Positions 2,570 through 60,253 of a stretch of 64,000 bases of DNA are shown here, piece by piece. The stretch spans positions 128,001 through 192,000 of the IMG/VR virus record IMGVR_UViG_3300031555_004294. One strand, given 5' to 3'. The DNA comes from a virus. Taxonomy: Duplodnaviria > Caudoviricetes. Both the position numbers and the translations under genes were made by a program. Under the pieces are notes generated by a model. It saw nothing but the letters and a program-made list of their open reading frames with translations, had not been told where the DNA came from and ran no database searches. The stretch's first letter is position 1. Each line of letters opens with the position of its first letter.

Positions 2570-2920
2570 ATGACAAATGATGAAATTGTAAAACACTTTA
2601 TATTTGATTTGGAAATGGAAAGATTTAATAGAACTACAAAAACAATCTTTCTATCATTTTCAAATGTACTTGGATTTAAACTTGTAAAAGAAAGAACTTA
2701 TAAAATTGATGTTGATTTAGTAAGGAAATTTCTAAAAGTTGTTTTAAAAGCTGGATTTACATTTCCTCTAAATGCTAAAACATATGTTTCTGATGATAGA
2801 GAAGAAATAATCTTGGATTTAGAACTCAAAAAAATTTATATTTTGAGAGAAGGAACTATTTGTTGTAAAAATTACATTCCAGAATATGTAGAGGAGTACA
2901 AATTAGAAAATGACGAATGA
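2570..2920 (+). CDS. MTNEE family paralog 1
   Basis: Start moved to MTNDEIVKHFIFDL; ends IPEYVEEY. Confidence 0.8.
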   Translation: MTNDEIVKHFIFDLEMERFNRTTKTIFLSFSNVLGFKLVKERTYKIDVDLVRKFLKVVLKAGFTFPLNAKTYVSDDREEIILDLELKKIYILREGTICCKNYIPEYVEEYKLENDE

Positions 2921-3257
2921 AGAAATTAGAAAAAAATTTTTGTTTGATTTAACAATGGGAAGATTTGAAAGAATTATTACTGACCAAATTATATTTTATG
3001 GACCATATCTTGAAACTTTCCAATTGGCAATGGTGTTAATTGACCTTGGATTTGAAAATGCAGAGTATGAAGATAAACTTAAGCGAAATAATTTCATACT
3101 TCTGGATAGAACAGAAATTCGTATATTTACTGAAACTAAAAGTTTTCACACTTATTGGATACCTAGCAGTATTGGTAATAGCAATCCTATAAATCAACAA
3201 ATACCAGATTATGTAAAAAAATATAAAATAACGGATAGTAGAGTTCTAATTACCTAA
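2910..3257 (+). CDS. MTNEE family paralog 2
   Basis: MTNEEIRKKFLFDL...IPDYVKKY. Confidence 0.85.
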   Translation: MTNEEIRKKFLFDLTMGRFERIITDQIIFYGPYLETFQLAMVLIDLGFENAEYEDKLKRNNFILLDRTEIRIFTETKSFHTYWIPSSIGNSNPINQQIPDYVKKYKITDSRVLIT

Positions 3258-3276
3258 AGGAGTAAGAATTTAGAAA

Positions 3277-3600
3277 ATGACGAATGAAGAAATTAGAAAG
3301 AGATTTGAATTTGACTTAAAAATGGGAAGATTTAAAGTTTCTCCAGATTCAGTACATTTAGGTTTGTTAACATCTAAAAATCAAGATGCATGTAATAGGC
3401 TGTTTAAGTTATTGACTGATATAGGAAAAACACAAATTGGACCTGGTTTTGAAGAAGAATTTGATGGTGTTTATATCTTTTCCTCATTCAAAAATAGATT
3501 TCAGTTGTTAAAATATAATGAAAAGATATTAGCTGAAGGTAAAGCTATTTTTAATGAAATTCCAGATTATATCAAGGAGTACAAAATAAATGACGAATGA
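3277..3600 (+). CDS. MTNEE family paralog 3
   Basis: MTNEEIRKRFEFDL...IPDYIKEY. Confidence 0.85.
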   Translation: MTNEEIRKRFEFDLKMGRFKVSPDSVHLGLLTSKNQDACNRLFKLLTDIGKTQIGPGFEEEFDGVYIFSSFKNRFQLLKYNEKILAEGKAIFNEIPDYIKEYKINDE

Positions 3601-3910
3601 AGAAATTAGAAAAAGGTTTCAATTTGATTTGGAAGTAGGAGTCTTTAAGAAAATTGAATTTGAAACTTATTTTTTAATAAAACGAAAAGACCTATGTTTT
3701 ATCGATTTCTTAATTGATATAGGTTACTTTTTTACATTTTTACCAAGTGCAGATGCATTAATAAATCAATCTATTAGGGAAACAAATGAAGTTTGTATGG
3801 TGCTAAATGAAGCTACTAAAGAAATAAACCCAACACTATGGAGATTTAAAGAATACTTTAATGATGTACCAGATTATATCAAGGAGTACAAAATAAAAAA
3901 TGACGAATGA
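3590..3910 (+). CDS. MTNEE family paralog 4
   Basis: conserved termini, overlapping start/stop. Confidence 0.85.
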   Translation: MTNEEIRKRFQFDLEVGVFKKIEFETYFLIKRKDLCFIDFLIDIGYFFTFLPSADALINQSIRETNEVCMVLNEATKEINPTLWRFKEYFNDVPDYIKEYKIKNDE

Positions 3911-4229
3911 GAATGAAGAAAAAAGATTCCAATTTGATTTGGATCTGGAAATAAAGTACAAAACTAAGTATACTAAGAACCACAAAATAGTATATTTCGT
4001 TTTGGACGATTCTGATTCTTATCCTTTCTTAATAGAATTAAGAAATGTTTTAAAAAGGTTAGGATACAAAAAGAAAGGTGGCTATGTGAAAAATAGCAAC
4101 GCTTTAAAGTTATATCTTAAGACAAGAAGATATGAAGAAGTGTATTCTGCACCAGATTTTAAGTCCATAACTTCACCTAAGAATCGATTTCCAGATTTTA
4201 TTAAGGAGCGTGTTTTAAATGACGAATGA
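3900..4229 (+). CDS. MTNEE family paralog 5
   Basis: conserved termini. Confidence 0.85.
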   Translation: MTNENEEKRFQFDLDLEIKYKTKYTKNHKIVYFVLDDSDSYPFLIELRNVLKRLGYKKKGGYVKNSNALKLYLKTRRYEEVYSAPDFKSITSPKNRFPDFIKERVLNDE

Positions 4230-4533
4230 AGAAATTAGAAAAAGATTTGAATTCGATACAGAATTTTTATTTAAAAATAGCAACTTAGATGAAATGTACT
4301 TTGTTTGTCCTATAAATAAAATAGGAAAATTTTTATATTTTTTAGAACATGATCTTGGATATAAAAGGAAAAATGCCATTTTTCCAAGGGGTTACAGAAT
4401 GAATGTAATTTATTTGGCAGTTTGTACAAAGTCTAAGTGTCTTATTAGATTTGAAGATTACGTAGATGGCTCTATTAGACTAAATCCAGTACCAGAGTAT
4501 ATTAAGGAGTATGAAATAAACTATGACGAATGA
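4219..4533 (+). CDS. MTNEE family paralog 6
   Basis: conserved termini. Confidence 0.85.
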   Translation: MTNEEIRKRFEFDTEFLFKNSNLDEMYFVCPINKIGKFLYFLEHDLGYKRKNAIFPRGYRMNVIYLAVCTKSKCLIRFEDYVDGSIRLNPVPEYIKEYEINYDE

Positions 4534-4852
4534 AGAAATCAGAAAAAGATTTAAATTTGACATTGAAATGGGTGTATTTGAAATAAACAAAAGTATACTT
4601 TGTTACACATTCAATGATAGCACGGAAAGTTGTCTTAAATTAAGAAAACTACTACTTGATATTGGAATGAAAGAATTGGAAAGATTTAGAAAACATAAAG
4701 ATGATGAAATTTGTACGGTACTGTTCTATGTTATAAATCCTGAAAGTTCTGATGATTCATGGAATAATACATTTGATACTTTTCAATATCGTGATGATGT
4801 CTATAGAAATAACAAAATTCCAGATTACGTCAAGGAGTATGTTATAGAATGA
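4523..4852 (+). CDS. MTNEE family paralog 7
   Basis: conserved termini. Confidence 0.85.
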   Translation: MTNEEIRKRFKFDIEMGVFEINKSILCYTFNDSTESCLKLRKLLLDIGMKELERFRKHKDDEICTVLFYVINPESSDDSWNNTFDTFQYRDDVYRNNKIPDYVKEYVIE

Positions 4853-5163
4853 CAAATGAAGAAATTAGAAAGAGATTTAAATTTGACTTAGAAATAGGAA
4901 TGTTCAAAAAAGACTATCCATTTGAAAGTATTACATTTCATGGGTATTATAAAGAAACTGCAAAATTAATAAAATTGCTTATTGATAGTGGCTATGAAGG
5001 GATAATTGCTAATAACTTAGAAAATAAGCATAATGGAGAACTTTATAGAACACAAATAGATGTTTCTAATAAAAAAATTTTAGCAATATATTGGACGTTG
5101 ACAGAAAATTATAATCTTCTTCCAGATTATATCAAGGAGTATGAAATAAACTATGACGAATGA
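4849..5163 (+). CDS. MTNEE family paralog 8
   Basis: conserved termini. Confidence 0.85.
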   Translation: MTNEEIRKRFKFDLEIGMFKKDYPFESITFHGYYKETAKLIKLLIDSGYEGIIANNLENKHNGELYRTQIDVSNKKILAIYWTLTENYNLLPDYIKEYEINYDE

Positions 5164-26244: not shown

Positions 26245-26266
26245 ACTTGTAACAATTTTAGTTTTA

Positions 26267-26278
26267 AATATATATTCT
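26267..26278 (+). promoter_or_regulatory. early-type promoter motif
   Basis: AATATATATTCT. Confidence 0.6.
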
Positions 26279-26321
26279 TCCCTTAGAAAGAACTAACTTT
26301 AAAAAGGTAGGACAAAAAACA

Positions 26322-26939
26322 TTGAAAGAGCTTACTAAAAAACAACTATTTGATTTACAGATCAACTATACAAAATATATTATCGAATATGGCGATAAAT
26401 GGTGGGAAGAAAAAGAAAATTGGATAAGCATTATAACTTGGGATAACTTATCCGAAGATTTCATAAGGGAATTTCAAGATTATTTAGACTTTTGCGTCAT
26501 TCCTGCAACTCAAGTTTTATCCGAAGATTTCATAAGGGAATTTCAAGATAAACTTGATTGGAATTCAGTATCAATAAACCAAGATCTATCCGAAGATTTC
26601 ATAAGGGAATTTCAAGATAAAATTTATTGGATTGGAATATCTGGCCATAAAAGAGATTTATCAGAAGATTTTATAGAAGAATTCCAAGATAAAGTTAGCT
26701 GGAGTTTGATCTCAATATATCAGAAATTATCGTGTGATTTTATAAGAAAGTTTCAAGACAAAGTTTACTGGACTTCAATTTTTAATCATCAAGAAAATTT
26801 ATCTGATGATTTCATATTGGAATTCCAAGATAAAATAAGTTGGAATAACTTATGTTGGAACAATCCATCCAAATGTAATATTTTTAAAAAATGGAGGAAG
26901 TTAATAGATGATAGCACTAACCAAACAACAGGAGTTTGA
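26322..26939 (+). CDS. tryptophan-repeat protein (LTKxQxFDL family)
   Basis: 23-aa LSEDFIREFQDKxxW repeats. Confidence 0.85.
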   Translation: MKELTKKQLFDLQINYTKYIIEYGDKWWEEKENWISIITWDNLSEDFIREFQDYLDFCVIPATQVLSEDFIREFQDKLDWNSVSINQDLSEDFIREFQDKIYWIGISGHKRDLSEDFIEEFQDKVSWSLISIYQKLSCDFIRKFQDKVYWTSIFNHQENLSDDFILEFQDKISWNNLCWNNPSKCNIFKKWRKLIDDSTNQTTGV

Positions 26940-27591
26940 TCTCTTGTTCAAATATTCAAACTTAGGATTTACGAATGAAAATTTGCATAGCGAAAAGAAA
27001 TGGGCAGAACTCATTCATCATCCTTCCAGAATATATGTAACACACAATAAGGAATTCTTACTTGAGTTCAAAGATGTTCTAGATATTGAAAATTTATCTG
27101 GTGGTATTCCAAATTACTTTATGAATGACTTTGAATTTTTTGATGAAATTTCCAAGTATATTGATTTTGGTTGCTTTCCTATCCGAATTCAAGATTACAG
27201 TACTGACAATGTATCTGTAGCTGCTCTTAGACGTTATAAGGAGACACTTAATTGGAATCGAGTGTACATATCTACACCATCAGAAGCTTATACTTCAGTA
27301 GAATTTTTAGAAGAGTTCAAAGATGTTCTATGTTGGGACAATCTTGATTATTCTTACATCTCTGAAGAAACTATAGAGCTTTTCAAGAATAAAGTATCTT
27401 GGAAGAAAGTTTGTATGAAGACTGATTTATCAGAGGACTTTATTAGACGAAACAAAAGAAAAATAGCTTGGAAGACACTTTGTAAACAACGTGATAAAAC
27501 TTTGAATTTCTCTGTTGAATTTATGAAGGAATTTGACGATAAAATTCACTGGGAAGTTTATGTAAAAGGACGTAAAACTTTATTTACTTAA
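26908..27591 (+). CDS. tryptophan-repeat protein (LTKxQxFDL family)
   Basis: LTKQQEFDL; degenerate repeats. Confidence 0.8.
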   Translation: MIALTKQQEFDLLFKYSNLGFTNENLHSEKKWAELIHHPSRIYVTHNKEFLLEFKDVLDIENLSGGIPNYFMNDFEFFDEISKYIDFGCFPIRIQDYSTDNVSVAALRRYKETLNWNRVYISTPSEAYTSVEFLEEFKDVLCWDNLDYSYISEETIELFKNKVSWKKVCMKTDLSEDFIRRNKRKIAWKTLCKQRDKTLNFSVEFMKEFDDKIHWEVYVKGRKTLFT

Positions 27592-28730: not shown

Positions 28731-28745
28731 AAAGGAATTTTGAAA

Positions 28746-29755: not shown

Positions 29756-29768
29756 AAGAGGTTTATAG

Positions 29769-45215: not shown

Positions 45216-45569
45216 TTATAAAAATCCTTGTATTTCTTCTACTTCATATAGATAATCTGGAAATGGATTAATTGTAGATTGGTCTTTCGAATTGGTTATC
45301 CTACAGAAGTAGTAATACTTTTTATCTAACTGTATGGAAATATGAGAATAAATATTTTTAGCAGTGGCACTAAAATTCCATTGGTAACCTAACTTTTGTA
45401 AAAAGTTCACTAACAATAATGCTTCTTTTTTAGATAACACTCTAAAAATGCAAACTGTAGATGAAATACACGCTGGGAAATCACCTATGCTGTAATCTTC
45501 ATCTACAACTTTTATAATTCCAGATTCCATTTCAAAGTTCATTCTTTTTTTAGCTTCATCTATTGTCAT
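45216..45569 (-). CDS. orphan member of MTNEE family
   Basis: MTIDEAKKRMNFEMESG...NPFPDYLYE. Confidence 0.7.
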   Translation of the reverse strand: MTIDEAKKRMNFEMESGIIKVVDEDYSIGDFPACISSTVCIFRVLSKKEALLLVNFLQKLGYQWNFSATAKNIYSHISIQLDKKYYYFCRITNSKDQSTINPFPDYLYEVEEIQGFL

Positions 45570-45860: not shown

Positions 45861-46729
45861 TCATCCATCAATTTATAAAGCTCACTTGCTCTATCATTTT
45901 GATCTGCGTTAATGTAATAATCGAACATAAATTCTCTTTGTGCTTTGGTCAGTCTTCTTATAGTATCTGAAGTTAAAACTGGTATACCTTGAGAAGGAGA
46001 ATGAACTAACACCCAACCTTTATCTACTAAGAAGTCAGCAGCAGCATTAACTACAGGTCTTTTTCTAGCTTTACACCAAGCTTCAAATTCATCTTTGTAG
46101 TGACTTAAATCTGCAGCAGCAACCTCATCATAACGTCCTCGTTCTAAGATAGAATTGTAAGGCCAAATCTGATGACCACCAAAATCAACTTCATAGAACT
46201 TAGCTTCTGGACTTAGCCAACCATATTCAACACCTTTTACTCTAGCGTCAATATAGTCTTGAACTAATCTAGAAGTTCCTTTGATTGGGGAATACTCTAC
46301 TGTATTAAGTCTGTATCTACTATATCTGTCATATTCTCCATTTTCAATCTTTTCTACAAGCTCACAGTATTTGTCATTCATTTCGCTTAGTTCTTCTCTA
46401 GTTTCCTTATACTTCTTAGCTAGCTTACTATAAGCAGTGAAAATATTAGTCTCGTTTAATGTTTCTTCGCTATCTAAGAATGCTAGACAAAATGTTCCAT
46501 CTCCACTGTTACCTCTTAACTCCGCTCTACCTAAAAGTATATCTTGTGCATACTTTTGTAAAGTTGCTTTAGTCTCATCTGTACCACACATGCAAGATAA
46601 AAGTAATTCTTCAACTTGACTGTATGGTTTAAACTCATCAAAGAACCATTCTTTAGCCAACTTAGTTATAAACTCACCCTGTACTGAAAAGCCTAGTGTT
46701 CCAATTACTTCTTCTTTTTCGTTTTCCAT
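45857..46729 (-). CDS. hypothetical protein
   Basis: ORF with GGGAGG RBS. Confidence 0.7.
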   Translation of the reverse strand: MENEKEEVIGTLGFSVQGEFITKLAKEWFFDEFKPYSQVEELLLSCMCGTDETKATLQKYAQDILLGRAELRGNSGDGTFCLAFLDSEETLNETNIFTAYSKLAKKYKETREELSEMNDKYCELVEKIENGEYDRYSRYRLNTVEYSPIKGTSRLVQDYIDARVKGVEYGWLSPEAKFYEVDFGGHQIWPYNSILERGRYDEVAAADLSHYKDEFEAWCKARKRPVVNAAADFLVDKGWVLVHSPSQGIPVLTSDTIRRLTKAQREFMFDYYINADQNDRASELYKLMDD

Positions 46730-47100
46730 TTTAATCGAACAACCTCCCCTTTTTTAGAATATGCTAATCCAAGATAACATGACCAATCAAATTTGTTTTT
46801 AGCTAAGTAAACTTCCTCACCAAATGTTAAGTCTTTCGTGTAGAATACCATAAGATCATCATTGTATATAGAATGAACACAGTCAATAATAAACTCTAGT
46901 CCAGTTACTTCACTGATTTTATTGACAAACTTAATCACATCTTCTTTACAAGTTGCCATTTCATTACATCTAACCGACCAATCTGTTTGCACTTCTAAAT
47001 TGTAATCAAACCCAAAAGTATAACCAGCATCTTCTACAATATTTCTTAGAAGCTGTTCAGGACTTAACATTTCCAAATCAAATTTAAGCTTCTTGTTCAT
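46705..47100 (-). CDS. KKLxFDL family paralog
   Basis: MNKKLKFDLEM...AGY...YSK. Confidence 0.8.
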   Translation of the reverse strand: MNKKLKFDLEMLSPEQLLRNIVEDAGYTFGFDYNLEVQTDWSVRCNEMATCKEDVIKFVNKISEVTGLEFIIDCVHSIYNDDLMVFYTKDLTFGEEVYLAKNKFDWSCYLGLAYSKKGEVVRLKWKTKKKK

Positions 47101-47471
47101 AATTTTCCTGAGAGTCCTTCTTTAGAATATACTAGTTCAAAATGTTTACTTAGTCTAGCATTTCCATCTGGAACAATAATTCCACCAAGTTTATAATCAT
47201 CTGAGTGGTAAGTATATATGACAGGAAGTCCTTCTATACGATCATCTTTAATGATGGTAAAGTCCTTTCCAGTTACATTAGATACTGCATCAATAAAGGC
47301 ATCAATATCGTCCTCACAGTTTGCAGTTTCTTTAGTAGATACACCAAAGTCGCCGTAACATGAAAAGGATGGTTCAGCATATGTATAACCAGCCTCTTCT
47401 ATAATGTCAATCAATACTTGACAGTCTTCTATGATTGACATTTCCAAATCAAATTTAAGCTTCTTGTTCAA
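47097..47471 (-). CDS. KKLxFDL family paralog
   Basis: MNKKLKFDLEM. Confidence 0.8.
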   Translation of the reverse strand: MNKKLKFDLEMSIIEDCQVLIDIIEEAGYTYAEPSFSCYGDFGVSTKETANCEDDIDAFIDAVSNVTGKDFTIIKDDRIEGLPVIYTYHSDDYKLGGIIVPDGNARLSKHFELVYSKEGLSGKL

Positions 47472-47812
47472 AACATTTTACCATCCTTAGAATACATAAA
47501 ACTTAGATACTTACTGGTATCTTTACAGTTAATCGTTCCAAAAATTTTGTTATTGCTAGTCCTAAATGTTATAACACTACCATCAGGTGACATCGTCATG
47601 ATCATATACCCACCAATTACTTTTCTAAGTGAATCTAGGAATTTATAGCCATCATTAATTGAACGTGGTACCTGTGTGCTCAAAACCCAATATTTAGTAT
47701 TGTTAGGATAACTAATTGTTTCCTTATGACAATACCCAGCTTTTTCTAAAATACCTTTCAAAACTTCTTTTGTATCTGACATTTCAAGGTCAAATTCAAG
47801 TTTTCTATCCAT
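47468..47812 (-). CDS. KKLxFDL family paralog
   Basis: MDRKLEFDLEM. Confidence 0.8.
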   Translation of the reverse strand: MDRKLEFDLEMSDTKEVLKGILEKAGYCHKETISYPNNTKYWVLSTQVPRSINDGYKFLDSLRKVIGGYMIMTMSPDGSVITFRTSNNKIFGTINCKDTSKYLSFMYSKDGKMF

Positions 47813-47823
47813 CTTCTATTCCT

Positions 47824-48336
47824 CTACTTTATTCTTACTAGATTTCCTCTACTATCACCCACATAAATATTATTGGTGCTTGTATCTACTATTATCTCAC
47901 CAGGAGTAGGTTTAAAAGAAGCAATATTCCAATTACTTACTCCAGAACTTAATTTAATTCTTGGCCCATTATAAGAAGATGTGTTAATTATCTGAATGAA
48001 CGCTGTATCTCTCAAACCTAGTTCTAGTTTTTTATTTGTATCTGAACGTATTTCAACTACAAATCTATTAGCAATTTTACTGGTAGTATATCTTTTTAAA
48101 TCTTTATCCCATTTAAACTTTACTCCAGTTACTTTGCTAATTCTTCTTTTAAACATCCATGTTGAAAGTTTAGAAGCTTTTAGCTTTCTGATCTGTATCC
48201 AGTAATATTTTCCGTCATCTTCTTTATAGATACTTGCATGATGATATTTTGTAGTGTTAACTATGTTTTCTAGTGCTTGTTCAGGAGTTAAGAATTGTAG
48301 GTCAAACTCAAGTTTCTTTCGTTTTTTATTATCCAT
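47824..48336 (-). CDS. KKLxFDL family paralog
   Basis: start moved to MDNKKRKKLEFDL. Confidence 0.75.
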   Translation of the reverse strand: MDNKKRKKLEFDLQFLTPEQALENIVNTTKYHHASIYKEDDGKYYWIQIRKLKASKLSTWMFKRRISKVTGVKFKWDKDLKRYTTSKIANRFVVEIRSDTNKKLELGLRDTAFIQIINTSSYNGPRIKLSSGVSNWNIASFKPTPGEIIVDTSTNNIYVGDSRGNLVRIK

Positions 48337-48664
48337 CGGTAAATAACTCCCCATGCTCATCATAAACTAATTCAAAATTACATCCTATGCAAAGATTTCC
48401 GCCAAATTTATGGTCTTCCGACCAATAATAAAATAAACCATCTTGAAAATCTATATTACACTCTTTACCAAGTGCATAAGCAATACGTTGAATAAAAACA
48501 TCAATTTGCTCTTTACAAGTTGCAAGTTCTTGGGTGTGTAAACCACAAGTAATATCTCCAACATAAACATCACAACGATATGTATAACCAGCTTCTTGTA
48601 TAGTGTTGATTAAGGTTTGTTTTGGTCCAAGCATCTTTAGGTCAAATTCAAGTTTCTTGTTCAT
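48329..48664 (-). CDS. KKLxFDL family paralog
   Basis: MNKKLEFDLKM. Confidence 0.8.
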   Translation of the reverse strand: MNKKLEFDLKMLGPKQTLINTIQEAGYTYRCDVYVGDITCGLHTQELATCKEQIDVFIQRIAYALGKECNIDFQDGLFYYWSEDHKFGGNLCIGCNFELVYDEHGELFTDG

Positions 48665-49299: not shown

Positions 49300-50244
49300 T
49301 TATGCCCATGGAATTTGTGATTTTCTATAATAAGCCGATTGTTTACTGCTAGAAATTTTAAAGTCGTCATATGCTTCTCTTGCGTCTTTAGGTAGTGAAG
49401 CATAGTTATCTTTAAAAAAGTTTTTGTCAAAAACCAAGTTCTTAGACTTGTCTAAAACACATAAACCTTTAGAATCTAAACCTTTTTCTATTGTTTCAAT
49501 CAGCTTGTAGTTGTAGATTCTAAAGAAATCACACCAATTTATATTTTCGTCCTTGTATTTTTCTAAGAAATATTTTGAGATGATGAAATTATGTTTTCCA
49601 TCAGTTCTATAGTTGTAACTTGTAAATTCGTAAATGTCAATTCTATCTTTATATGTTTCAAAATTCTTAGGATTACAAAGGCAGATTGCATATTTTGAAA
49701 GGGATTTCCAATCTAACTTATCCTTGTACATTTCTACCTTTTTAAGAGAAATGTCAGTCTGACAGGATAATGCATGAAAGTCCATAGTACTACTTTTATC
49801 ATCAGTTAAGTATTTTAGACTTTCTTTTGGTAAGCCTTTTTTAGTTAAAAGCATAGGGATAAGACTATTTTCATTGAGTTCTTTATCGAATTCGTTTATG
49901 AATTCAATTGTAAATCGATTTCCATTACTTCTATAAACAAAATCTCGCCAGTCTATATAGTCTCGATTTACTTTTAAAAATTCCATGTTTATATTAACAT
50001 TTACACAGAGTTTTCCAAGATAAGGTTTTAAGTACTCGTAGAACTCATCTATGAATTCATCAGTAAGAGTATTACGAGTAGCAATTTGGTACCAAGAAAT
50101 ATTACTTTTATATTTCCTGATAATCTCTACATCTTCTGGTTTTGTTATTTTTAGTTTCTTTGTAAATTCGTATGGTTTATCAATAATTCCACTTAATACC
50201 AAATCGAATTCTTTTTGTTTTGCTGTTTTCTTTGTGTTAGCCAT
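49300..50244 (-). CDS. tryptophan-repeat protein, divergent
   Basis: KQKEFDL; xxW repeats. Confidence 0.75.
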   Translation of the reverse strand: MANTKKTAKQKEFDLVLSGIIDKPYEFTKKLKITKPEDVEIIRKYKSNISWYQIATRNTLTDEFIDEFYEYLKPYLGKLCVNVNINMEFLKVNRDYIDWRDFVYRSNGNRFTIEFINEFDKELNENSLIPMLLTKKGLPKESLKYLTDDKSSTMDFHALSCQTDISLKKVEMYKDKLDWKSLSKYAICLCNPKNFETYKDRIDIYEFTSYNYRTDGKHNFIISKYFLEKYKDENINWCDFFRIYNYKLIETIEKGLDSKGLCVLDKSKNLVFDKNFFKDNYASLPKDAREAYDDFKISSSKQSAYYRKSQIPWA

Positions 50245-50554
50245 TTGTTATATAACCTTCCTTTTTCATTTCTTCTACGAGATCTTTTGATAAGTATTGA
50301 GAGTAGCAAATAATTTGCCAATCAATTTTATTTTTGAATTCCCTAATAAAATCTTCGGATAAATGTTGGTAGCGAGAAATCTTTTGCCAATCAAGTATAT
50401 CTTGGAATTCTCTTATAAAATCTTCTGGTAAATTTTGACTACATTGACAAGTAAACCAAAATCTTTCAGAATTATATTTTTCCTTATAGCGTTTCCATAA
50501 GTCTCTATATTTGACTTCCAGATCAAATATCTGTTGCTTGGTTAGTTTTATCAT
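50237..50554 (-). CDS. tryptophan-repeat protein
   Basis: LTKQQIFDL. Confidence 0.85.
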   Translation of the reverse strand: MIKLTKQQIFDLEVKYRDLWKRYKEKYNSERFWFTCQCSQNLPEDFIREFQDILDWQKISRYQHLSEDFIREFKNKIDWQIICYSQYLSKDLVEEMKKEGYITNG

Positions 50555-51159
50555 TAAATATAACCTTCCTTTTTTATCCTATCGATAAATTCTTTAGACA
50601 AGTGTTTATGTCGTCCAAGTATCACTATATTCTTCCAATTTAATCTATCTTTAAATTCTTCCATAAAGTTTTCAGTAAAATTTTTATGACAGTTTGCTGA
50701 TAGTACAGCCCAATCTATCTTATTCTGAAATTCTCGTATAAAGTCTTCTGATAGATTACTATTTATCATCGAAATAACTACCCAATCAACATGATCTTGA
50801 AATTCTCGTATAAAGTCTTCTGATAATTTTTGAGCGTAAGAAATACCTTTCCAAATAACTTTATCTTTAAACTCTCTTATAAAATCTTCAGATAATTTTT
50901 GATAATAGGAAATATTCTCCCAGTCTACTTTATCTTTAAACTCTCGTATAAAGTCTTCTGATAAAGTTGAGTGACAAGAAATATGTTTCCAATTTAAATT
51001 ATCCTGAAATTTTCTTATAAAGTCTTCAGATAGTTGTTTTGTCACTATATGACTCCAAAATCCTTTGTTATTATATTTCCCTTTATAAGAATAATCATTC
51101 CAAAGATGTCTATAAACAAATTCCAAATCAAACTTTTGTTTTTTAGTTAGTTTAGTCAT
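50554..51159 (-). CDS. tryptophan-repeat protein
   Basis: LTKKQKFDL; six repeats. Confidence 0.85.
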   Translation of the reverse strand: MTKLTKKQKFDLEFVYRHLWNDYSYKGKYNNKGFWSHIVTKQLSEDFIRKFQDNLNWKHISCHSTLSEDFIREFKDKVDWENISYYQKLSEDFIREFKDKVIWKGISYAQKLSEDFIREFQDHVDWVVISMINSNLSEDFIREFQNKIDWAVLSANCHKNFTENFMEEFKDRLNWKNIVILGRHKHLSKEFIDRIKKEGYI

Positions 51160-51192
51160 AGTAAATTTCTTCCTTTTTATTTTTCTACAACT

Positions 51193-51257
51193 AGAATATA
51201 TATTTCAAACAGTTTTTACTTTTTTAAGTAATTTTCCTATACAAAAACAATCCATTA
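51193..51257. promoter_or_regulatory. divergent early (minus, AATATATATTCT 51193-51204) and late (plus, AACAATCCATTA 51246-51257) promoters
   Basis: motif matches. Confidence 0.65.
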
Positions 51258-52952: not shown

Positions 52953-52997
52953 AAAAAAAGAATCCCTAATACTGTTTTAGTATTAGGGATTTTCTTT
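52953..52997. terminator. bidirectional terminator
   Basis: AATCCCTAATACT/AGTATTAGGGATT. Confidence 0.8.
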
Positions 52998-53274
52998 ATA
53001 GTTTCTTTAAACAATCTTTACTGTCCACATAAAATTTAGTAGCTTTATCATACAAAAACATACCAGGATCACCGACTTCAATAATTCTATCAAAATCATC
53101 ACGTAAGTATTCATAACAACTAACGCAAACATCTGATGGGAGTAATATTCTGCCAATCTCAACATAGTAATAGAAACAATCTTTTTCAGAACAGTATATT
53201 ACCAGTTTTTCTGATTCTTCTTTGTTAAGAAGAAAGTTGAACAATATTTCTTTTAAAGTATAAGTCTTTTCCAT
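52996..53274 (-). CDS. TLKQLIF family paralog
   Basis: start moved to MEKTYTLKEILFNF. Confidence 0.7.
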   Translation of the reverse strand: MEKTYTLKEILFNFLLNKEESEKLVIYCSEKDCFYYYVEIGRILLPSDVCVSCYEYLRDDFDRIIEVGDPGMFLYDKATKFYVDSKDCLKKL

Positions 53275-53284
53275 ATAACTTTTG

Positions 53285-53557
53285 TCAATACTTTCTAAAT
53301 AAGTTTTCGCTAATCTGATAAAATCTAGCATCAGCATTTTTAATAATAAAACCATCATAGATCATAATAAGGTATGGTGTTCTTGTATAAAAAGTTCCAG
53401 TTAGATTGGTATTAAAGTTAGCTGGAGTATTATTTTTAACAAAATTGTAAGATTCTTCAATATCTTTTTCAAAACAATAAATCGCTATCTTTTTTACTTT
53501 TTCATGATCCATGTTAAAATTAAACATGATTTCTTTTAAAGTACAAATTTCATTCAT
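53285..53557 (-). CDS. TLKQLIF family paralog
   Basis: TLKEIMFNF. Confidence 0.75.
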   Translation of the reverse strand: MNEICTLKEIMFNFNMDHEKVKKIAIYCFEKDIEESYNFVKNNTPANFNTNLTGTFYTRTPYLIMIYDGFIIKNADARFYQISENLFRKY

Positions 53558-53837
53558 ATTTTGGCAACCTCATAAACTTATCTTTATCAAACTGACCAAA
53601 AATTTCAAATTCTGATGGTTTTACTTTTCTATTTAACCATACCTCTACAGTTTTTAATCGATCATCTATTGCACTAGCATTAGTTGTATATGTGCGAAAA
53701 CCATTTTCATGTAGTTGATAGAGTATGTTTACCTTAGTTTGTTCATCACAGTCTAATCTAAGGTAGCACTTCCATAAACTATCATAGTTCATACAAAGAT
53801 AAAAGATTAGTTGCTTAAGAGTATAATACTCCATCAT
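53550..53837 (-). CDS. TLKQLIF family paralog
   Basis: YTLKQLIFYLCMN. Confidence 0.8.
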   Translation of the reverse strand: MMEYYTLKQLIFYLCMNYDSLWKCYLRLDCDEQTKVNILYQLHENGFRTYTTNASAIDDRLKTVEVWLNRKVKPSEFEIFGQFDKDKFMRLPKYE

Positions 53838-53839
53838 TT

Positions 53840-54133
53840 TTACCTACTTTCCCTAAATTTAGGTAATCTTACAAAAGTATCATCATCTACCTGACCAAAT
53901 ATTTCAACTTCATCAACTAGTCTGGTATTGCAGTAGACAGTAATGGTACGGTCTAATGGTTTATCAACAGAACAGTAACCAACAAAATATCTGTCAAATT
54001 TGTTTTCAATAAGTTTGGTAAGGATATTGTTTTTTACATTGTCCTCACAGTGTAGTTGAATGTGTGCAGTACTAATGTTATCTCGGTTTAAACACAGGAA
54101 GAAAAGTAACTGTTTAAAAGTATATTTTTCCAT
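53840..54133 (-). CDS. TLKQLIF family paralog
   Basis: start moved to MEKYTFKQLLFFLC. Confidence 0.75.
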   Translation of the reverse strand: MEKYTFKQLLFFLCLNRDNISTAHIQLHCEDNVKNNILTKLIENKFDRYFVGYCSVDKPLDRTITVYCNTRLVDEVEIFGQVDDDTFVRLPKFRESR

Positions 54134-54401
54134 AATTTTTCTTCTCCATTTTTGTAAATTTATCAGCATCAAATTGCTCAAACTTAATTATTGGACATGA
54201 TATATCTTTACAAATGTCTATTATTAAGCGACAATGTTTATAGTCTCCACGAATTACACGTATGACAAAAATATTGTTTTCACGTAATTGGTTTTCTATA
54301 TTTTCAATGTTCCCGTTAAGAGCATCAATATAACACTGACTAAACTTTTTCCTATTCATACAGAGATAAAAAATTAGTTGTTTAAGAGTATAAATTTCCA
54401 T
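54114..54401 (-). CDS. TLKQLIF family paralog
   Basis: YTLKQLIFYLCMN. Confidence 0.8.
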   Translation of the reverse strand: MEIYTLKQLIFYLCMNRKKFSQCYIDALNGNIENIENQLRENNIFVIRVIRGDYKHCRLIIDICKDISCPIIKFEQFDADKFTKMEKKNYGKIYF

Positions 54402-54403
54402 TA

Positions 54404-54703
54404 TTAAACAAATTCCTCCACTTTTAAAAACCTATCATCGTCAATCTCTTCAAATATAATTTTTCCATTTGCATTCCTATTAACAAGTACTGCTAAAGAA
54501 GAGTATAAATTGTTTTTTCTTGTACTTTCTTTATAGTATTGAGATTCACTAGTTACAATAAGCTTATTCTCTTCCAATTTCGTAATTACATCACGAACAT
54601 CTATATCTCTTATATCGCCAATATAACACACATAAAATTTCTCTCTGTTTAAACAAAGATAGAAGATCAGCTGCTTAAGACTATAAGTATTCATAGCTTT
54701 CAA
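54404..54703 (-). CDS. TLKQLIF family paralog
   Basis: YSLKQLIFYLCLN. Confidence 0.8.
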   Translation of the reverse strand: MKAMNTYSLKQLIFYLCLNREKFYVCYIGDIRDIDVRDVITKLEENKLIVTSESQYYKESTRKNNLYSSLAVLVNRNANGKIIFEEIDDDRFLKVEEFV

Positions 54704-54983
54704 TTTCCTCTGTTTTTATAAATTTATCACTGTCTAACTGTTTAAACTCAATAGAGCTATTTAGTGCTTTTTTGTTAAGTCGTAGTGTTAAGCTGCAATG
54801 TGTACGGATATCAAAGTGTGAGTCTACAATGTCAAACTTATTTTCAATTAACTGTTCCCATATCTTATCAACATCCTTTGGGTTTATGTTATAGATAAAA
54901 CATATTCTAAACTGTTTGTCCTTAATCATACACAAATAGAAGATCAACTGCTTAAGGTTATAAACTTCTTGTTCCATCTTCAT
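54681..54983 (-). CDS. TLKQLIF family paralog
   Basis: YNLKQLIFYLCM. Confidence 0.8.
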   Translation of the reverse strand: MKMEQEVYNLKQLIFYLCMIKDKQFRICFIYNINPKDVDKIWEQLIENKFDIVDSHFDIRTHCSLTLRLNKKALNSSIEFKQLDSDKFIKTEEIESYEYL

Positions 54984-54992
54984 ATAACTCCT

Positions 54993-55547
54993 TCAAATAT
55001 CAAACTCAATGTTATTAAAATTGATAAACTTTACTCTATCATTGTACAAAGCTGCATAAGTATTAAGACGTTCTTCATTGTCATAAATTATACTTAGCGT
55101 TAAGCCACCATTATCCATATAAAGTTCAAACCACAAAGGACTCATCCAAATACTCTCTGTTATAGTTGGCTTGAAAATGTACTCATTTTCATCACCAAAT
55201 CGTTTACCTTCTAAAAGGTCAAACATATTAGTTGATGGCTTTTGTGGAATGACTATATTGTTGTAAGAATATTCTACTTGGGTAGTTGCTACCTCAATTT
55301 CTGGAGCATTGTAGTCAATATTTATTGACTGGTGGATACAGTGAGCGACAAAATTTTGTATAGCTTCTTCTGTTGGTAGTGAACTTTTGTCAAAGAAAAT
55401 AAAGTAGACATTATTATCAAAAGCTGCATTAAAGATAAGCTTCTTTAATGATACCTTTTCTGGTGTATAACATTCCCATTTTGCAATAATCCTAATGACA
55501 TTATTTGCACCACAGAACCAATTATCATGAGTCGAAATATCAAACAT
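54993..55547 (-). CDS. hypothetical protein with internal SLKKLIFN motif
   Basis: ORF with RBS. Confidence 0.7.
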   Translation of the reverse strand: MFDISTHDNWFCGANNVIRIIAKWECYTPEKVSLKKLIFNAAFDNNVYFIFFDKSSLPTEEAIQNFVAHCIHQSINIDYNAPEIEVATTQVEYSYNNIVIPQKPSTNMFDLLEGKRFGDENEYIFKPTITESIWMSPLWFELYMDNGGLTLSIIYDNEERLNTYAALYNDRVKFINFNNIEFDI

Positions 55548-55936: not shown

Positions 55937-55989
55937 TTTTGAAAAAATTTTTCTCTTATATCTCTAAAATGGGATATAAGAGAAAAATT

Positions 55990-56448
55990 TCATTTAGATA
56001 GGAACTTTGATGGAACTTTACATTTACTTGCAATTTGTGCTTGAATGTAAGACACCATATCATCTGGTCCCATCATTCTTCGAATACAAAAAGTATACAC
56101 TCGTCTGTTAACAATTACCGTATATGGTTTTACTGTTTCTTCGTAAATTGAAATATCATACTTCTCAACTAGACTGTTAATAACTACTTCTCTTTCCCCA
56201 AATGGAACAAATAGTACTAGAGGGGTATGAATTCCAAATTGTGATTTACTAATTTCTTCTAGCCTATACTCATTATATTTTCTAGCAACACTATCGATTC
56301 CAAATAATTCATACAGTTCGTCTAAAATGGCTAGTATAACTTCTTTGTCCTCACACAAAGTTAGACCAAAGAAACTAATGGAATGGTCTCCATAAAGCAT
56401 GTCTCTTTCAAACACTACCTGTCGTATTGTTTTTCTTAATTCTTCCAT
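55990..56448 (-). CDS. TxKQVxFE family paralog
   Basis: TIRQVVFERDM. Confidence 0.8.
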   Translation of the reverse strand: MEELRKTIRQVVFERDMLYGDHSISFFGLTLCEDKEVILAILDELYELFGIDSVARKYNEYRLEEISKSQFGIHTPLVLFVPFGEREVVINSLVEKYDISIYEETVKPYTVIVNRRVYTFCIRRMMGPDDMVSYIQAQIASKCKVPSKFLSK

Positions 56449-56464
56449 TTTGATCTCTCTTTCA

Positions 56465-56926
56465 TTAGTCTAGATTATCAAATGAGAAATTTTTGTAATC
56501 TACATACAATAAGTTAGCTTCTCCATTACAAAAAGGAGCATGATTTTTGTGTTCAATAATTGCCCACTCTTTGCAATCAGGTTTTTCAATACGATGTTCT
56601 ATGTTAACAAAAATATCTTTTGAGTTATTATAGAGTACAATGACTATAACCAGAGGAAGATCGTGAGTCCTACAAAATATTTCTGGATTTACTAAATTTT
56701 CTGGAGTTAGTTCACGTTTAATGAAATTAGAAAATATCACATAGTAACCAGGTTTTCCAAAATATTCTGCAATCTTTTCTCCATTTCTTTGTAGCTTCCA
56801 AATATTTTGTATGAAATTACAAAGATCCTTTTGAGTTTTAAAGTAATAATTACAAATTTCCACATAGTTACAGTCATTTGTAAATGCTGTAAATCCTAAT
56901 GATTTTAAATTATACGTATTTGCCAT
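56465..56926 (-). CDS. hypothetical protein
   Basis: probable start MANTY with GGAG RBS. Confidence 0.65.
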   Translation of the reverse strand: MANTYNLKSLGFTAFTNDCNYVEICNYYFKTQKDLCNFIQNIWKLQRNGEKIAEYFGKPGYYVIFSNFIKRELTPENLVNPEIFCRTHDLPLVIVIVLYNNSKDIFVNIEHRIEKPDCKEWAIIEHKNHAPFCNGEANLLYVDYKNFSFDNLD

Positions 56927-57350
56927 AATGTACATTCTCCAATTTTTTCCAACTGTAGTCTTCTGAAGAAATTTTTCCAATTATAATAGGACTAGATGCA
57001 TACTTAGGATCACTAATTGGTATAGTGTAAGTTTTTTCATCATCACCACAATGTAAATGCAAAATATAATTTATGTCAGTAGAAACAGCGAATATTATTT
57101 TTTTATCTGATCTTACTTCAATAAAAGCTTTACTTATAAAATGGTGTTCCATATTTAATTTCTTACGTATTCTTGTGATTTCCTGTTCATAACCCTCATA
57201 CTCATAGAACTCATATAGGAACTCTAAAAAATCTAATATAATAGCACGATCTGTAGGACACCTAAATTCTGTAAAGAAAACATCAGAATTTGGAAAGAAC
57301 ATATCTCTTTCAAATAGTATTTGTTTTATAGTTGTTTTTAAGTCTTCCAT
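56910..57350 (-). CDS. TxKQVxFE family paralog
   Basis: TIKQILFERDM. Confidence 0.8.
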   Translation of the reverse strand: MEDLKTTIKQILFERDMFFPNSDVFFTEFRCPTDRAIILDFLEFLYEFYEYEGYEQEITRIRKKLNMEHHFISKAFIEVRSDKKIIFAVSTDINYILHLHCGDDEKTYTIPISDPKYASSPIIIGKISSEDYSWKKLENVHYGKYV

Positions 57351-57351
57351 A

Positions 57352-57753
57352 TTATCTTACCACCCATCTATTTAAACAACGAAAATATATCTTGACTTGT
57401 TTTTCTTTATCTCTTGTAGTAATTGGTAACATAACAACTTTAACAGTATCTTCAAGATAATTTCTTCTACAATAGTCTCCATACATGTTAAGTTCTACAT
57501 CAGTTTTATTACTACGAATAGCTAGTTCTATGGATCTACTTTTATATCGTTTGATAGCTTTTCTTATATACTGTTTGTTTTCTTTTTTCTTACTATCATC
57601 ACCATATATTTCATAGATGTCATCTAAGAACTTAAATAACATTCCTCTATCTTCAGGTAACTGAAAACCAGTAAAAGTAAGGGAATGGTCTTTGTAATTC
57701 ATTTCTCTATCAAATATAACTTGCTTTAAAGTTGATGCTCCTTCAATTTCCAC
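57352..57753 (-). CDS. TxKQVxFE family paralog
   Basis: TLKQVIFDREM, GFQLP. Confidence 0.8.
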   Translation of the reverse strand: MEIEGASTLKQVIFDREMNYKDHSLTFTGFQLPEDRGMLFKFLDDIYEIYGDDSKKKENKQYIRKAIKRYKSRSIELAIRSNKTDVELNMYGDYCRRNYLEDTVKVVMLPITTRDKEKQVKIYFRCLNRWVVR

Positions 57754-58153
57754 TTTGATTATCTCCTTCCTGTTTAGATATTAGTAAACGACTCCTATGA
57801 ATATGTAAACCTTTTTTGTTATGTCTACCATTTACATAGTATAAACCTTGGTCTTCAGGATAGTAATCTTTTCCGCGTGCCAAGAGACAAACTTGATTAG
57901 TGGGTTTAAGACAATAAAGCCCAGGCAACCATATCTCTGTAAATTTTGTACCATGTAGTATGTAATAGTCTATCTCTTTTTCATTTAGTTCTTTTCTTCT
58001 ATCATCGTACTCTTTATATAGTTCATTAAGTACATTCAATAAGAGATCCTTATCTTTAGGAAGTTTAAAACCGTTAATATATAAAGATGAATCTTTATAA
58101 ACCATTTCTCTTTCAAACAGTACTTGTTTCAGAGTCCACATTTGTTGTTTCAT
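57743..58153 (-). CDS. TxKQVxFE family paralog
   Basis: start moved to MKQQMWTLKQVLFE; GLHIH. Confidence 0.8.
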   Translation of the reverse strand: MKQQMWTLKQVLFEREMVYKDSSLYINGFKLPKDKDLLLNVLNELYKEYDDRRKELNEKEIDYYILHGTKFTEIWLPGLYCLKPTNQVCLLARGKDYYPEDQGLYYVNGRHNKKGLHIHRSRLLISKQEGDNQSGN

Positions 58154-58592
58154 CTTTACTCTCCTTTTTCTCTCTGAGTATACAAGACTTATGTAAATAA
58201 AGTCCTCTAGATGGATGGTATCTTTTGCCATTTTCAGCAGTATAGCTACCGCCTGACCTAAAAGTTAGCTCTTGTTCATATGGATAATAAGCTGGTCCGT
58301 AATCGGTTATTACTGGAACCCATTTGTATAATTTATCTGGATACTTAAGCATATTTTTACAAGTTATTTGTATCTCTACAAACCTAGTACCAAGTCTAAT
58401 ACTTCGTTCCAATATCACGTCATTGCCTTCTCTACACTTATCTCCATATATGCCATAAAGCTCCTCTAAAACTTCTAATAAAAAATCCTTTTCTTTTGGA
58501 AGTTTAAAGCCATTAAAAGATAGACACTCTTTTGGATGGTTAAACTCTCTTTCAAATACTGCTCGTTTGACAGTACATTTCTGTTGTTTCAT
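58113..58592 (-). CDS. TxKQVxFE family paralog
   Basis: NGFKLP, GLYLH. Confidence 0.8.
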   Translation of the reverse strand: MKQQKCTVKRAVFEREFNHPKECLSFNGFKLPKEKDFLLEVLEELYGIYGDKCREGNDVILERSIRLGTRFVEIQITCKNMLKYPDKLYKWVPVITDYGPAYYPYEQELTFRSGGSYTAENGKRYHPSRGLYLHKSCILREKKESKDETTNVDSETSTV

Positions 58593-59010
58593 TTGTTTCT
58601 CCTATTTCTAGACAATCTTTATGTATGTGTAAACCACGATGGATGAAGCAATTTCTATATCTTCCACCTCTTTCAAGATATGTTTTATGACCGCCGTGTA
58701 AGAATAATAGATACTTTTGTTTTGGATAGCTATACTCATCTATAGATGTAACCAATATTTCATTCTGAGATAATATAATCGATACATAAAACTTACTTAA
58801 TTGAGAAAGTTTAATGTGTTTGTCTACTAATTCTTTAGGGAATTTCTGTTCAACTTTAGTAGAGTAATTTTCTAATATCTCGTCCAATGTTTTTATTAAA
58901 ACATCTTTGTCTTTAGGCATTTCAAAACCATTAAAATAAAGTGGCTCAGCACTACATTTTATTTCTTTTTCAAATAGTACCTGTTTGATAGTCCATTTCT
59001 GTTGTTCCAT
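58552..59010 (-). CDS. TxKQVxFE family paralog
   Basis: MEQQKWTIKQVLFE...GLHIHKDCLEIG. Confidence 0.85.
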   Translation of the reverse strand: MEQQKWTIKQVLFEKEIKCSAEPLYFNGFEMPKDKDVLIKTLDEILENYSTKVEQKFPKELVDKHIKLSQLSKFYVSIILSQNEILVTSIDEYSYPKQKYLLFLHGGHKTYLERGGRYRNCFIHRGLHIHKDCLEIGETNETTEMYCQTSSI

Positions 59011-59011
59011 T

Positions 59012-59389
59012 TTAGTCTCCTATTTCTAGACAATCTTTATGGATATGTAAACCACGTTCTATAAAACAGTATTCAATAGTACAAGTGTCTGTAAACATAA
59101 GTTTTTTCCCTAATGGGCTACGATCATTAACAAACACACCATACTTCAATTTTATACCACCATTCAAAACTCGAATTGAAAGTTCAGAATTTGTATTAAG
59201 ATTGGTTATTTTATCCCTAACCGATCCCATATACTTACTAGGATATCTTTCAAACAATTCTTCAAGTACTTTTATTAAAAATTCTTTATCTCTTGGTAGT
59301 CTAAAACCATTGATATAAAGTGCTTCACTATCATAGTTTAACTCTTTTTCAAATAGTACTTGTTTAAGAGTCCATTTCTGTTGTTCCAT
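59012..59389 (-). CDS. TxKQVxFE family paralog
   Basis: MEQQKW...GLHIHKDCLEIGD. Confidence 0.85.
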   Translation of the reverse strand: MEQQKWTLKQVLFEKELNYDSEALYINGFRLPRDKEFLIKVLEELFERYPSKYMGSVRDKITNLNTNSELSIRVLNGGIKLKYGVFVNDRSPLGKKLMFTDTCTIEYCFIERGLHIHKDCLEIGD

Positions 59390-59391
59390 TT

Positions 59392-59820
59392 TTAGTCTCC
59401 TATTTCTAGACAGTCTTTATGAATATGTAAGCCAAAAAATATGTTATGTGACTGATAGATTGTCCCACCAAGTCCTTCAATTTTATATGTTTTAGTTTCA
59501 CTTTTTGGGAAAAACATAAGTTCTTTCTCCATTGGATAGTTACGATAGCTTTGATAATCAATCTTTATCTTTTCTTTAAAAACTCTAATTGCACGAGGAC
59601 TACCAGCACAATATTTGTATAACTGTTCTATTTTATATTTAATTGATTCTTTAGATTCATCATTTGGGTATACTTCAAATATTTCATCTACTGCTTTTAG
59701 TAAAAGATCTTTATCCTGTGGTAGAGTAAAACCATTGATATAGAGTGGAAAAATCTTATACTTTTCGTTCATTTCTTTTTCAAACAGTACTTGTTTGATA
59801 GTCCATTTCTGTTGTTCCAT
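59392..59820 (-). CDS. TxKQVxFE family paralog
   Basis: MEQQKW...GLHIHKDCLEIGD. Confidence 0.85.
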   Translation of the reverse strand: MEQQKWTIKQVLFEKEMNEKYKIFPLYINGFTLPQDKDLLLKAVDEIFEVYPNDESKESIKYKIEQLYKYCAGSPRAIRVFKEKIKIDYQSYRNYPMEKELMFFPKSETKTYKIEGLGGTIYQSHNIFFGLHIHKDCLEIGD

Positions 59821-59821
59821 T

Positions 59822-60253
59822 TTAATCTCCTATTTCTAGACAATCCTTGTGAATATGTAAACCACCAGCAATATGGTAGATACTTTTATTTCCATTACTC
59901 TTGGTGATAAAACTGTATCTTCCAGTATGTTCTATGTAAGTTAAACCTTTATCTTCTGGAAAATTATATGAACACATAGTTGAAAATCCCACATAATTAT
60001 TTCTGTTAACATACAAATGTATATAAAACGATGTGTTAGTAAGTTCATGTTCTAAATGCGATAATGCATTTGATGTCAAAAGTCTATTAGTGTCGGATAA
60101 TGGATAAACTTCATAAAGTTTTTGTAATACTTTAACTAAAAAGTCTGAATCTTTAGGTAATTTAAATCCATCAATATGTAAGTTCGGTCTATTTTCATAT
60201 GTCGTTTCTCTCTTAAAGATAATTTCTTTAAGAGTCCATTTTTGTTGTTCCAT
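59822..60253 (-). CDS. TxKQVxFE family paralog
   Basis: MEQQKW...GLHIHKDCLEIGD. Confidence 0.85.
   Translation of the reverse strand: MEQQKWTLKEIIFKRETTYENRPNLHIDGFKLPKDSDFLVKVLQKLYEVYPLSDTNRLLTSNALSHLEHELTNTSFYIHLYVNRNNYVGFSTMCSYNFPEDKGLTYIEHTGRYSFITKSNGNKSIYHIAGGLHIHKDCLEIGD

Follow-up and report, generated by a model that had tools for sequence, protein, structure and literature searches.

Several described systems join a constant handle to a variable head. The F-box is a ~45-residue, three-helix domain that binds Skp1, and the PRANC proteins of poxviruses are ankyrin-repeat proteins with a C-terminal F-box-like domain. The capsid targeting sequence (CTS) of phage T4 internal proteins is a flexible, cleaved peptide on late, virion-packaged proteins. 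Jumbo phages, in turn, have lineage-specific, hypervariable paralog arrays, i.e., tandem multigene families that share a single conserved motif (e.g., in phage G, 121Q, and Rak2-type phages). Here, we describe a short motif, which we refer to as the “tag”, that is shared by five families of small proteins (A to E) encoded in a 64,000-nucleotide stretch of phage DNA (the “window”, bases 128,001–192,000 of a single 299,070-bp contig with a guanine-plus-cytosine [GC] content of 31%). Our preferred interpretation, which we hold with about even confidence, is that the tag is a structural helix of a diversifying protein superfamily, and that a helix of the same kind was fused to family B.

The tagged genes resemble the jumbo phage paralog arrays in that small, diverged proteins are encoded in tandem, head to tail, behind early promoters, with a short conserved helix in a compact domain. 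They differ from other such arrays in that one motif spans several arrays that are separate by BLAST, is joined to an unrelated repeat fold, and can be found at either terminus. As with the T4 CTS, a short conserved N-terminus is present on diverse small phage proteins that, in T4, are thought to counter host defenses (PMC3012670). Unlike the CTS, the tag is an ordered, folded helix in two structure models, its genes lie behind early-type promoters, and there is no evident (L/I)xE cleavage pattern. In pairing a small, constant helical element with a variable domain or repeat scaffold, the tagged proteins are reminiscent of F-box and PRANC proteins; however, the element here is a single helix of ~11–13 residues, with no Pfam match and no known Skp1-like partner. 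An initial annotation of the window had drawn an analogy to F-box adaptors. Domain searches lend this analogy no support: among ten representative proteins, no Pfam family, F-box included, was matched at E values up to 1 beyond sub-threshold noise. A literature search for a described equivalent of the shared-helix system found nothing relevant.

Judging from its sequence, the phage is an uncultured AR9/PBS1-like jumbo phage, because its B-family DNA polymerase shares 38% identity with the polymerases of Bacillus phages PBS1 and AR9, and because two paralogous window proteins (394 and 460 amino acids) can be taken, from their N-terminal sequences, as split RNA polymerase beta′-like subunits. 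A megablast search of the window against GenBank phages gave no match and no close relative. IMG/VR does contain relatives with polymerases 77–80% identical to that of the phage; one of these, a complete contig of 319,626 bp (G001), was analyzed whole. Control DNA consisted of 50 kb of Listeria phage LPJP1 (24% GC), 16 kb of phage BpSp, and loci of two more distant relatives.

A motif shared by five protein families

The initial annotation listed ~45 window proteins in five families with a common N-terminal motif. That inventory stands, with 45 tagged genes (A, 14; B, 9; C, 5; D, 8; E, 9; Table 1), which represent about five to eight lineages rather than 45 independent events. The same holds for two further observations in the annotation: the orphan gene at 32579 does carry a tag, of the B type, and the motif nearly always falls within the first ~20 residues, with the central Phe at residue 7–15 (trimmed starts) in all members but one (residue 22). 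In the family D gene at 54993, the tag lies ~35 residues from the start. With the central Phe numbered 0, the core reads K(−4)-[KRQ]-h-x-F(0)-[DEY]-L-x-M(+4). When the families are aligned without gaps on this residue, K(−4) and F(0) are in the consensus of all five; position −3 is basic or Gln, +1 is D, E, or Y, +2 is L (K or R in family E), and +4 is M or F. The consensus tag of family B is LTKKQIFDLxFKY. BLAST keeps the five families apart. Families A, C, D, and E had no match when the ten representatives were scanned against Pfam and PHROGs, and a feature search of the ESM Atlas with families E and A returned only noise.

A motif this short could in principle be a compositional coincidence: at 31% GC, with K, F, D, L, I, and N abundant, amphipathic N-terminal helices of unrelated families might come to look alike. 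Loose matches do arise by chance: the regular expression from the initial annotation turns up in interior sequence at a rate of 0.02 per 30 residues, and the exact pattern TK[KQ]QIFD[LF] is present in unrelated viral proteins, e.g., at the N-terminus of a 173-residue protein on four contigs with 47–48% GC. Nonetheless, composition does not explain the motif. Among 346 predicted proteins in the genome, 47 match the regular expression in their first 30 residues, versus ~7.5 expected from the interior rate. To offset the non-independence of paralogs, a position-specific scoring matrix (PSSM) built from four families was scored on the fifth. In all five tests, the median member outscored 99.3–99.96% of interior 30-residue windows (P = 0.0004–0.007 for each family) and 97.9–100% of shuffles of its own N-terminus. 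The full PSSM (score ≥9) has 65 matches in the genome, with 53 in the first 30 residues; shuffled proteins give 6.8 ± 2.4 matches, of which 0.95 are N-terminal, and reversed sequences give three. Enrichment above the compositional background, which the initial annotation had left to a comparison with shuffled sequences, is thus borne out. The AT-richer control phages yield next to nothing (one interior match in the 50 kb of LPJP1, one match in the 16 kb of BpSp), the two distant-relative loci yield none, and the motif occurs in the same register in a second genome. Coincidence is already contradicted by these tests, and we consider it extremely improbable.

The tag is predicted to be a helix of a folded domain

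In both structure models, the tag is predicted to be an ordered part of a folded domain. The AlphaFold2 model of a family A protein (4849–5163; alignment of 37 sequences) has a predicted local distance difference test (pLDDT) score of 92.3 and a predicted template modeling (pTM) score of 0.85. Its elements are a helix at residues 3–15 (the tag), a strand at 27–33, a helix at 34–46, strands at 65–71 and 76–83, and a helix at 93–97; pLDDT for residues 1–20 is 97. The model of a family B protein (50237–50554; 105 amino acids; pLDDT 92.9, pTM 0.83) is an all-alpha solenoid in which the tag forms a helix at residues 6–14, with pLDDT of ~91. An alternative reading of the tag as a beta-strand, based on its alternating hydrophobic residues, was rejected, since both models give a helix. 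Comparison of the two models with the PDB and the Atlas gave no convincing match to either; for family A, a winged-helix-like fold, to be judged against solved winged-helix and DEP domains, came into consideration as a possibility.

Sequence conservation is consistent with the models. In 141 family A representatives, the conserved positions cluster at residues 1–19 (I6, K8, R9, F10, F12, D13, L14, M16, G17, F19) and 89–98 (N89, P92, Y94, Y98), with F30, L44, G48, Y49, I70, and K75 conserved in between. By our helical-wheel reading, the conserved residues of helix 1 cover about two-thirds of the helix surface, as fits a packed helix. The invariant columns of families D and E likewise fall in the tag. 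A complex prediction for two copies of a family A protein scored 0.15 against a mark of 0.42, which is no verdict, and we use it as evidence neither way.

On our preferred interpretation, the motif would be the first alpha-helix of compact folded domains rather than a free peptide. Families A, C, D, and E, probably together with a few C-terminally tagged permutants (see below), would form one old and very fast-evolving superfamily of early proteins of 95–160 amino acids, made up of helix 1, a strand, a helix ending in G-Y/F, and a small sheet. Helix 1 would be the best-kept part of a constant scaffold, maintained by purifying selection on the protein, while the remaining surface diversifies. 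In this clade, a helix of the same kind would have been joined to the front of tryptophan-repeat alpha-solenoids, probably through recombination with a neighboring A-like gene. Because of their early promoters, tandem expansion, and hypervariability, the tagged proteins are most likely diversified binders for host takeover or counter-defense.

Probable kinship of families A, C, D, and E

We infer a common fold for families A, C, D, and E from profile–profile alignments made with hhalign. With the tags included, the A–C alignment (P = 2.9e-4) matches up the two tags and pairs the “KLLxxxGY” helix with “ILExAGY”; A aligns with E over tag, strand, and helix (P = 0.017, 37 columns); and E aligns with D (P = 0.001, 37 columns). 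For eight of the ten pairs of families, the best local alignment places one tag on the other. When the tags are cut off, the best A–C, A–D, and A–E alignments all fall on the second helix. Moreover, a tag-less family A hidden Markov model (HMM), run against tag-masked proteins, ranks 12 C/D/E/F-type proteins among the 30 best of 358 small proteins (hypergeometric P = 1.1e-5; Mann–Whitney P = 0.0035), although this enrichment counts non-independent paralogs, which inflates the figure. Two other results also weigh against kinship: no pair of family profiles is significant once the tags are removed (the best, A–C, has P = 0.013 and covers one helix), and a D/E-like array in G001 is not enriched in the tag-less ranking. 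Given the co-linear tag-inclusive alignments, the weak yet consistent likeness at the second helix, and the rank enrichment, families A, C, D, and E probably share their architecture and origin as one diverged superfamily, although this is not proven.

The initial annotation described the remainders of the families as unrelated. This is correct for family B, a tryptophan-repeat solenoid as opposed to a small alpha/beta domain, and is not upheld for A, C, D, and E, which are probably one superfamily. For these four, the results come near the outcome that the annotation itself saw as fatal to a docking peptide, a helix that is simply part of one shared fold.

In four proteins, the motif is C-terminal instead. 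Three form a gene family at genome positions 55328–56202 (locus L032; LKQAIFDIEM at residue 80 of 95), and the fourth is g63073 (genome 63073–63381), whose G001 ortholog also keeps the motif C-terminally. Since the N-terminus of g63073 aligns to family A from the second helix onward, and since the position is kept in its ortholog, these proteins are most simply read as circular permutants in which gene boundaries have shifted by one helix within a tandem array.

Family B and the tryptophan repeats

All 22 members of family B in the genome have visible tandem repeats of ~23–24 residues (LSEDFIxEFxDKVxW). Family B matches phrog_3532 (E = 9.7e-24 and 1.5e-26), and a tblastn search leads to BpSp gp045, a “tryptophan repeat gene family protein”. 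By sequence, then, family B belongs to the tryptophan-repeat family, which is annotated in BpSp and phage G (phrog_3532, phrog_22019, phrog_11920) and has the same repeats. The tag is not a feature of that family as such. The BpSp and LPJP1 members that were examined start with repeats or with unrelated residues, all seven LPJP1 N-termini have negative scores, and four of the 22 paralogs in the phage genome are untagged. We have seen the LTKKQIFDLxFKY helix on such proteins only here, in G001, and in L041 (an IMG/VR locus of the same clade). Because the homologs in BpSp and LPJP1 are untagged, the tag can apparently be added or removed as a module. Conversely, a B-type tag is found without repeats in two proteins, g37198 and the orphan at 32579.

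We infer that the tag of family B originated by fusion. A subfamily of A (g45352 and its G001 counterpart h252679) carries KRFEFDL(T/R)FKY, has FDLxFKY in common with family B, and lies near B genes, which suggests that the tag helix was grafted onto B by recombination. The family A HMM matches g45352 at E = 0.014 (full length) and h252679 at E = 2.8e-9. Together with the C-terminal copies, the grafting is an apparent case of module shuffling and boundary shifts in tandem phage arrays.

Conservation at the level of protein or DNA

At the junctions between family A genes, the DNA itself is conserved. A single conserved unit runs from the final codons of one gene, through the AAGGAG ribosome-binding site, to the first four codons of its successor, and the ribosome-binding site lies inside the codons for the C-terminal IPDYIKEY. 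Most family A genes overlap their successor by the 11 nucleotides ATGACGAATGA (junctions 2910–6894), which are read as NDE-stop in one gene and MTNE in the next; this overlap accounts for the conservation of the first four codons, and translational coupling at these junctions is likely. It is therefore conceivable that gene ends are kept as DNA or RNA elements for unequal crossing-over or cassette shuffling, as well as for translational coupling, and that the peptide is a by-product. The conserved junction and the widely shared overlap both fit this idea, which we nonetheless judge improbable. The cross-family core, K(−4) to M(+4), sits downstream of this overlap, the families use different codons for it, synonymous sites within the tag vary, families B, C, D, and E lack comparable conserved 3′ ends, and copies of the motif are present at C-termini too. 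A tag that follows array position rather than the orthology of the protein body, as the idea would have it, was not seen here.

Instead, the pattern of substitutions indicates vertical descent of the tag with purifying selection on the peptide. The proportion of synonymous differences in tag codons (pS) is 0.47, versus 0.19 for non-synonymous differences (pN), with synonymous variation including GAT/GAC, TTA/TTG, and GAA/GAG. Clear cross-genome orthologs are few, and those found keep their own tag variants rather than the local array consensus: window gene 3900 and L005 gene 8232 have 55% body identity and share atypical tags, and window gene 5755 and L005 gene 9579 both have IERKF. For the same reason, gene conversion is rejected as the cause of tag identity.

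A structural helix or an interaction module?

Several observations count against a purely structural role for the tag. Its burial is deduced from pLDDT and the pattern of conservation, with models for families A and B only. Conservation of the tag helix far exceeds that of other elements of the core, and its charged residues K(−4) and D(+1) persist from family to family although the C-terminal halves differ. This superior conservation, and the addition of the helix to a repeat fold that is untagged in the BpSp and LPJP1 homologs examined, suggest a role in addition to folding. The presence of the tag on an unrelated repeat scaffold, its placement at either terminus, and its conservation above the rest of the core give a minority chance, of some weight, that the tag is also a common interaction surface.

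The initial annotation had proposed a common docking peptide that could bind one phage or host hub. Part of that proposal survives: the motif is non-random, is selected as protein, and is joined to at least two unrelated architectures. Its free-peptide aspect does not, as the tag is a folded helix in both models. In a modified form, the helix would be folded in, and its exposed conserved side, consisting of K(−4), D(+1), and their neighbors, plus PDYIKEY in family A, would make a constant face. With this face, ~60 early proteins would bind one hub, while a variable face on each would recognize a different target. We regard this as possible and hold it tentatively. It would account for the occurrence of tags in two unrelated architectures and in repeat-free proteins (32579 and g37198), for the tagging of 18 of the 22 tryptophan-repeat paralogs, and for tags at either end of the protein. 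The tag is also the best-conserved segment of every family, family A is conserved at both termini, and the tag is kept between phages with 78%-identical polymerases while the bodies fall to 25–55% identity. On the other side, no candidate hub was found, the hub protein postulated by the annotation was not identified, and there is no known adaptor domain. Furthermore, the helix is ordered in each model, which is not what is expected of a linear motif, and most of the conservation can be explained, with no partner involved, by a first helix packed into a shared fold. The stronger version, in which the helix is a portable recruitment module that, at either terminus of two or more unrelated folds, brings ~60 early proteins to one phage or host hub across a jumbo phage clade, is unlikely; if true, it would be a prokaryotic-virus counterpart of the F-box/PRANC and CTS systems.

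These alternatives have different consequences. If the structural interpretation is true, the motif brings several orphan arrays together as a single large, fast-evolving superfamily of early proteins and is a simple signature with which to find such proteins in metagenomes. If the helix is a shared interface, a single hub would serve a library of host-directed binders, and a 15-residue peptide would be an experimental handle on it.

Distribution of the tag

In the genome as a whole, about 60 early genes are tagged. This is ~17% of the genes of the phage, or about one in six. No tagged protein has a known function or matches a solved fold; the share in the 320-kb relative, G001, is similar. 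Beyond the genes already described, N-terminal copies are found in the g237146/g237747 pair and in g45352. G001 has 55 matches, which make up two A arrays, B-like and C-like genes, and one D/E-like array. The tags of the latter array (LKRILFDIQL, LTLKQVLFEFML, FKKFLFDLQI) bridge the FDL and LFE forms, and the proteins have the same helix-strand-helix pattern.

The families differ in how widely they can be traced. A search of 1.84 billion proteins with the family A profile found 208 metagenomic cluster representatives, 136 of them at E = 1e-10 or better. Among the matches listed, all are ~80–190 amino acids except for one repeat artifact, and those inspected are tagged. Family E was found only in this phage and near-identical contigs, and its profile gave no match in G001. 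When the first 40 residues of family B were used in a word-indexed search, the single match was a near-identical protein that is probably encoded by the same phage. In IMG/VR, 14 stretches fit a degenerate DNA pattern for TK[KQ]QIFD[LF]. Two of these are from this clade (L038, which is G001, and L041, with the same protein); the other matches examined are unrelated proteins or very short reading frames.

Early-type promoters

The AR9 early promoter consensus is AAATATATATTAT-N6-G (PMC5312081). In the phage, the core TATATATT[ACT]T is matched at 35 sites, many of which extend to AAATATATATTCT-N5-TG, close to the AR9 consensus. The initial annotation stated that most tagged genes lie in runs headed by such promoters. 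This is true of two B runs and the E run (Table 1). The C run is on the same strand downstream of the 51159 promoter, beyond a terminator-like hairpin, and family A has only a near-consensus site upstream of 2062 that would serve it; for family D, no early-type promoter was seen. Outside the window, early-type sites precede B genes (genome 113,642) and the C-terminally tagged trio (55,287), and another is located ~300 nucleotides ahead of a C-like gene at 269,175. Early expression of most tagged genes is therefore plausible.

Table 1. Tagged gene runs and early-type promoters in the window (positions count from the first base of the window; aa, amino acids)
Feature	Position	Strand	Remarks
Family A array, 13 tandem genes, 96–135 aa	2570..6894	+	Start MTNEEIRKRFEFDLKMG.F, end near IPDYIKEY
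Early-type promoter AAATATATATTCT-N5-TAG, ahead of B run at 26322	26266..26290	+	
Family B, two tagged tryptophan-repeat genes (26322–26939, 26908–27591)	26322..27591	+	LTKKQ.FDL tag, then LSEDFIREFQDKVDW repeats; early promoter ahead
Family B, three tagged tryptophan-repeat genes (28740, 29228, 29769)	28740..30266	+	phrog_3532, E 1e-24 to 1e-26; tblastn to BpSp “tryptophan repeat gene family protein”, match begins after tag
Orphan with B-type tag PPLSKQQIFDLAL, body without recognizable repeats	32579..32971	+	PSSM score 18.0; BLASTP does not cluster it with B
Family A outlier (MTIDEAKKRMNFEMESG...)	45216..45569	−	Family A HMM E 4.7e-14, full length
Family C, five tandem genes	46705..48664	−	Start MNKKLEFDLEM, helix ending AGY directly after
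Family B, three tagged tryptophan-repeat genes (50554, 50237, 49300)	49300..51159	−	Tag and repeats; AlphaFold2 model of 50237–50554
Early-type promoter ahead of B run at 51159	51180..51205	−	
Family D, seven genes of ~95 aa (YTLKQLIFYLCMN) and longer 54993–55547 with internal copy VSLKKLIFNAAF	52996..55547	−	
Family E, nine genes (WTLKQVLFEKEMNY) and 56465–56980 with degenerate tag	55990..60262	−	
Early-type promoter TTTATATATTAT-N5-TG, ahead of E run at 60262	60272..60300	−	

Neighboring genes and other arrays

Several untagged genes lie among the tagged runs. A class II aldolase/adducin gene (27609–28730, + strand) breaks the first B run, which is followed by two radical-SAM genes (30260–32424, +; Pfam E values for these genes, 1e-10 to 3e-11). 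An Hsp20/alpha-crystallin-like gene (48764–49168, −; Pfam E = 6e-4, just under the cut-off) separates the tagged B genes from the C array, with a gene of 49% identity in the equivalent place in G001. Downstream of the cluster of C and A-like genes, 42390–44681 (−) encodes a 763-residue protein with a weak N-terminal von Willebrand A domain, syntenic with G001 75982–78306. An opposite-strand gene for a protein of 99 amino acids (55637–55936, +) lies between the D and E arrays; in G001, a related, N-terminally extended open reading frame occupies the same slot (61137–61694).

A separate paralog family has an N-terminal motif of its own, LNE(N/K)Q..MY..C.FL.E. Its members are encoded at window positions 18742–19314 and 19426–20076 (−) and genome positions 33039–34955, and also in L002 (20655–21236), L005 (19833–20453 and 21234–21809), and L009 (15950–16303). 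Conservation of this family extends from the phage to a clade with a polymerase of only 38% identity. In that clade, L009/L010 326–4911 is a different run of genes, for proteins of 112–188 amino acids, upstream of the DNA polymerase, and several of their N-termini look alike by eye (e.g., NILPIFKELF and YLPVYESIL). Because another gene run is present there, the slot upstream of the DNA polymerase may take different arrays in each clade.

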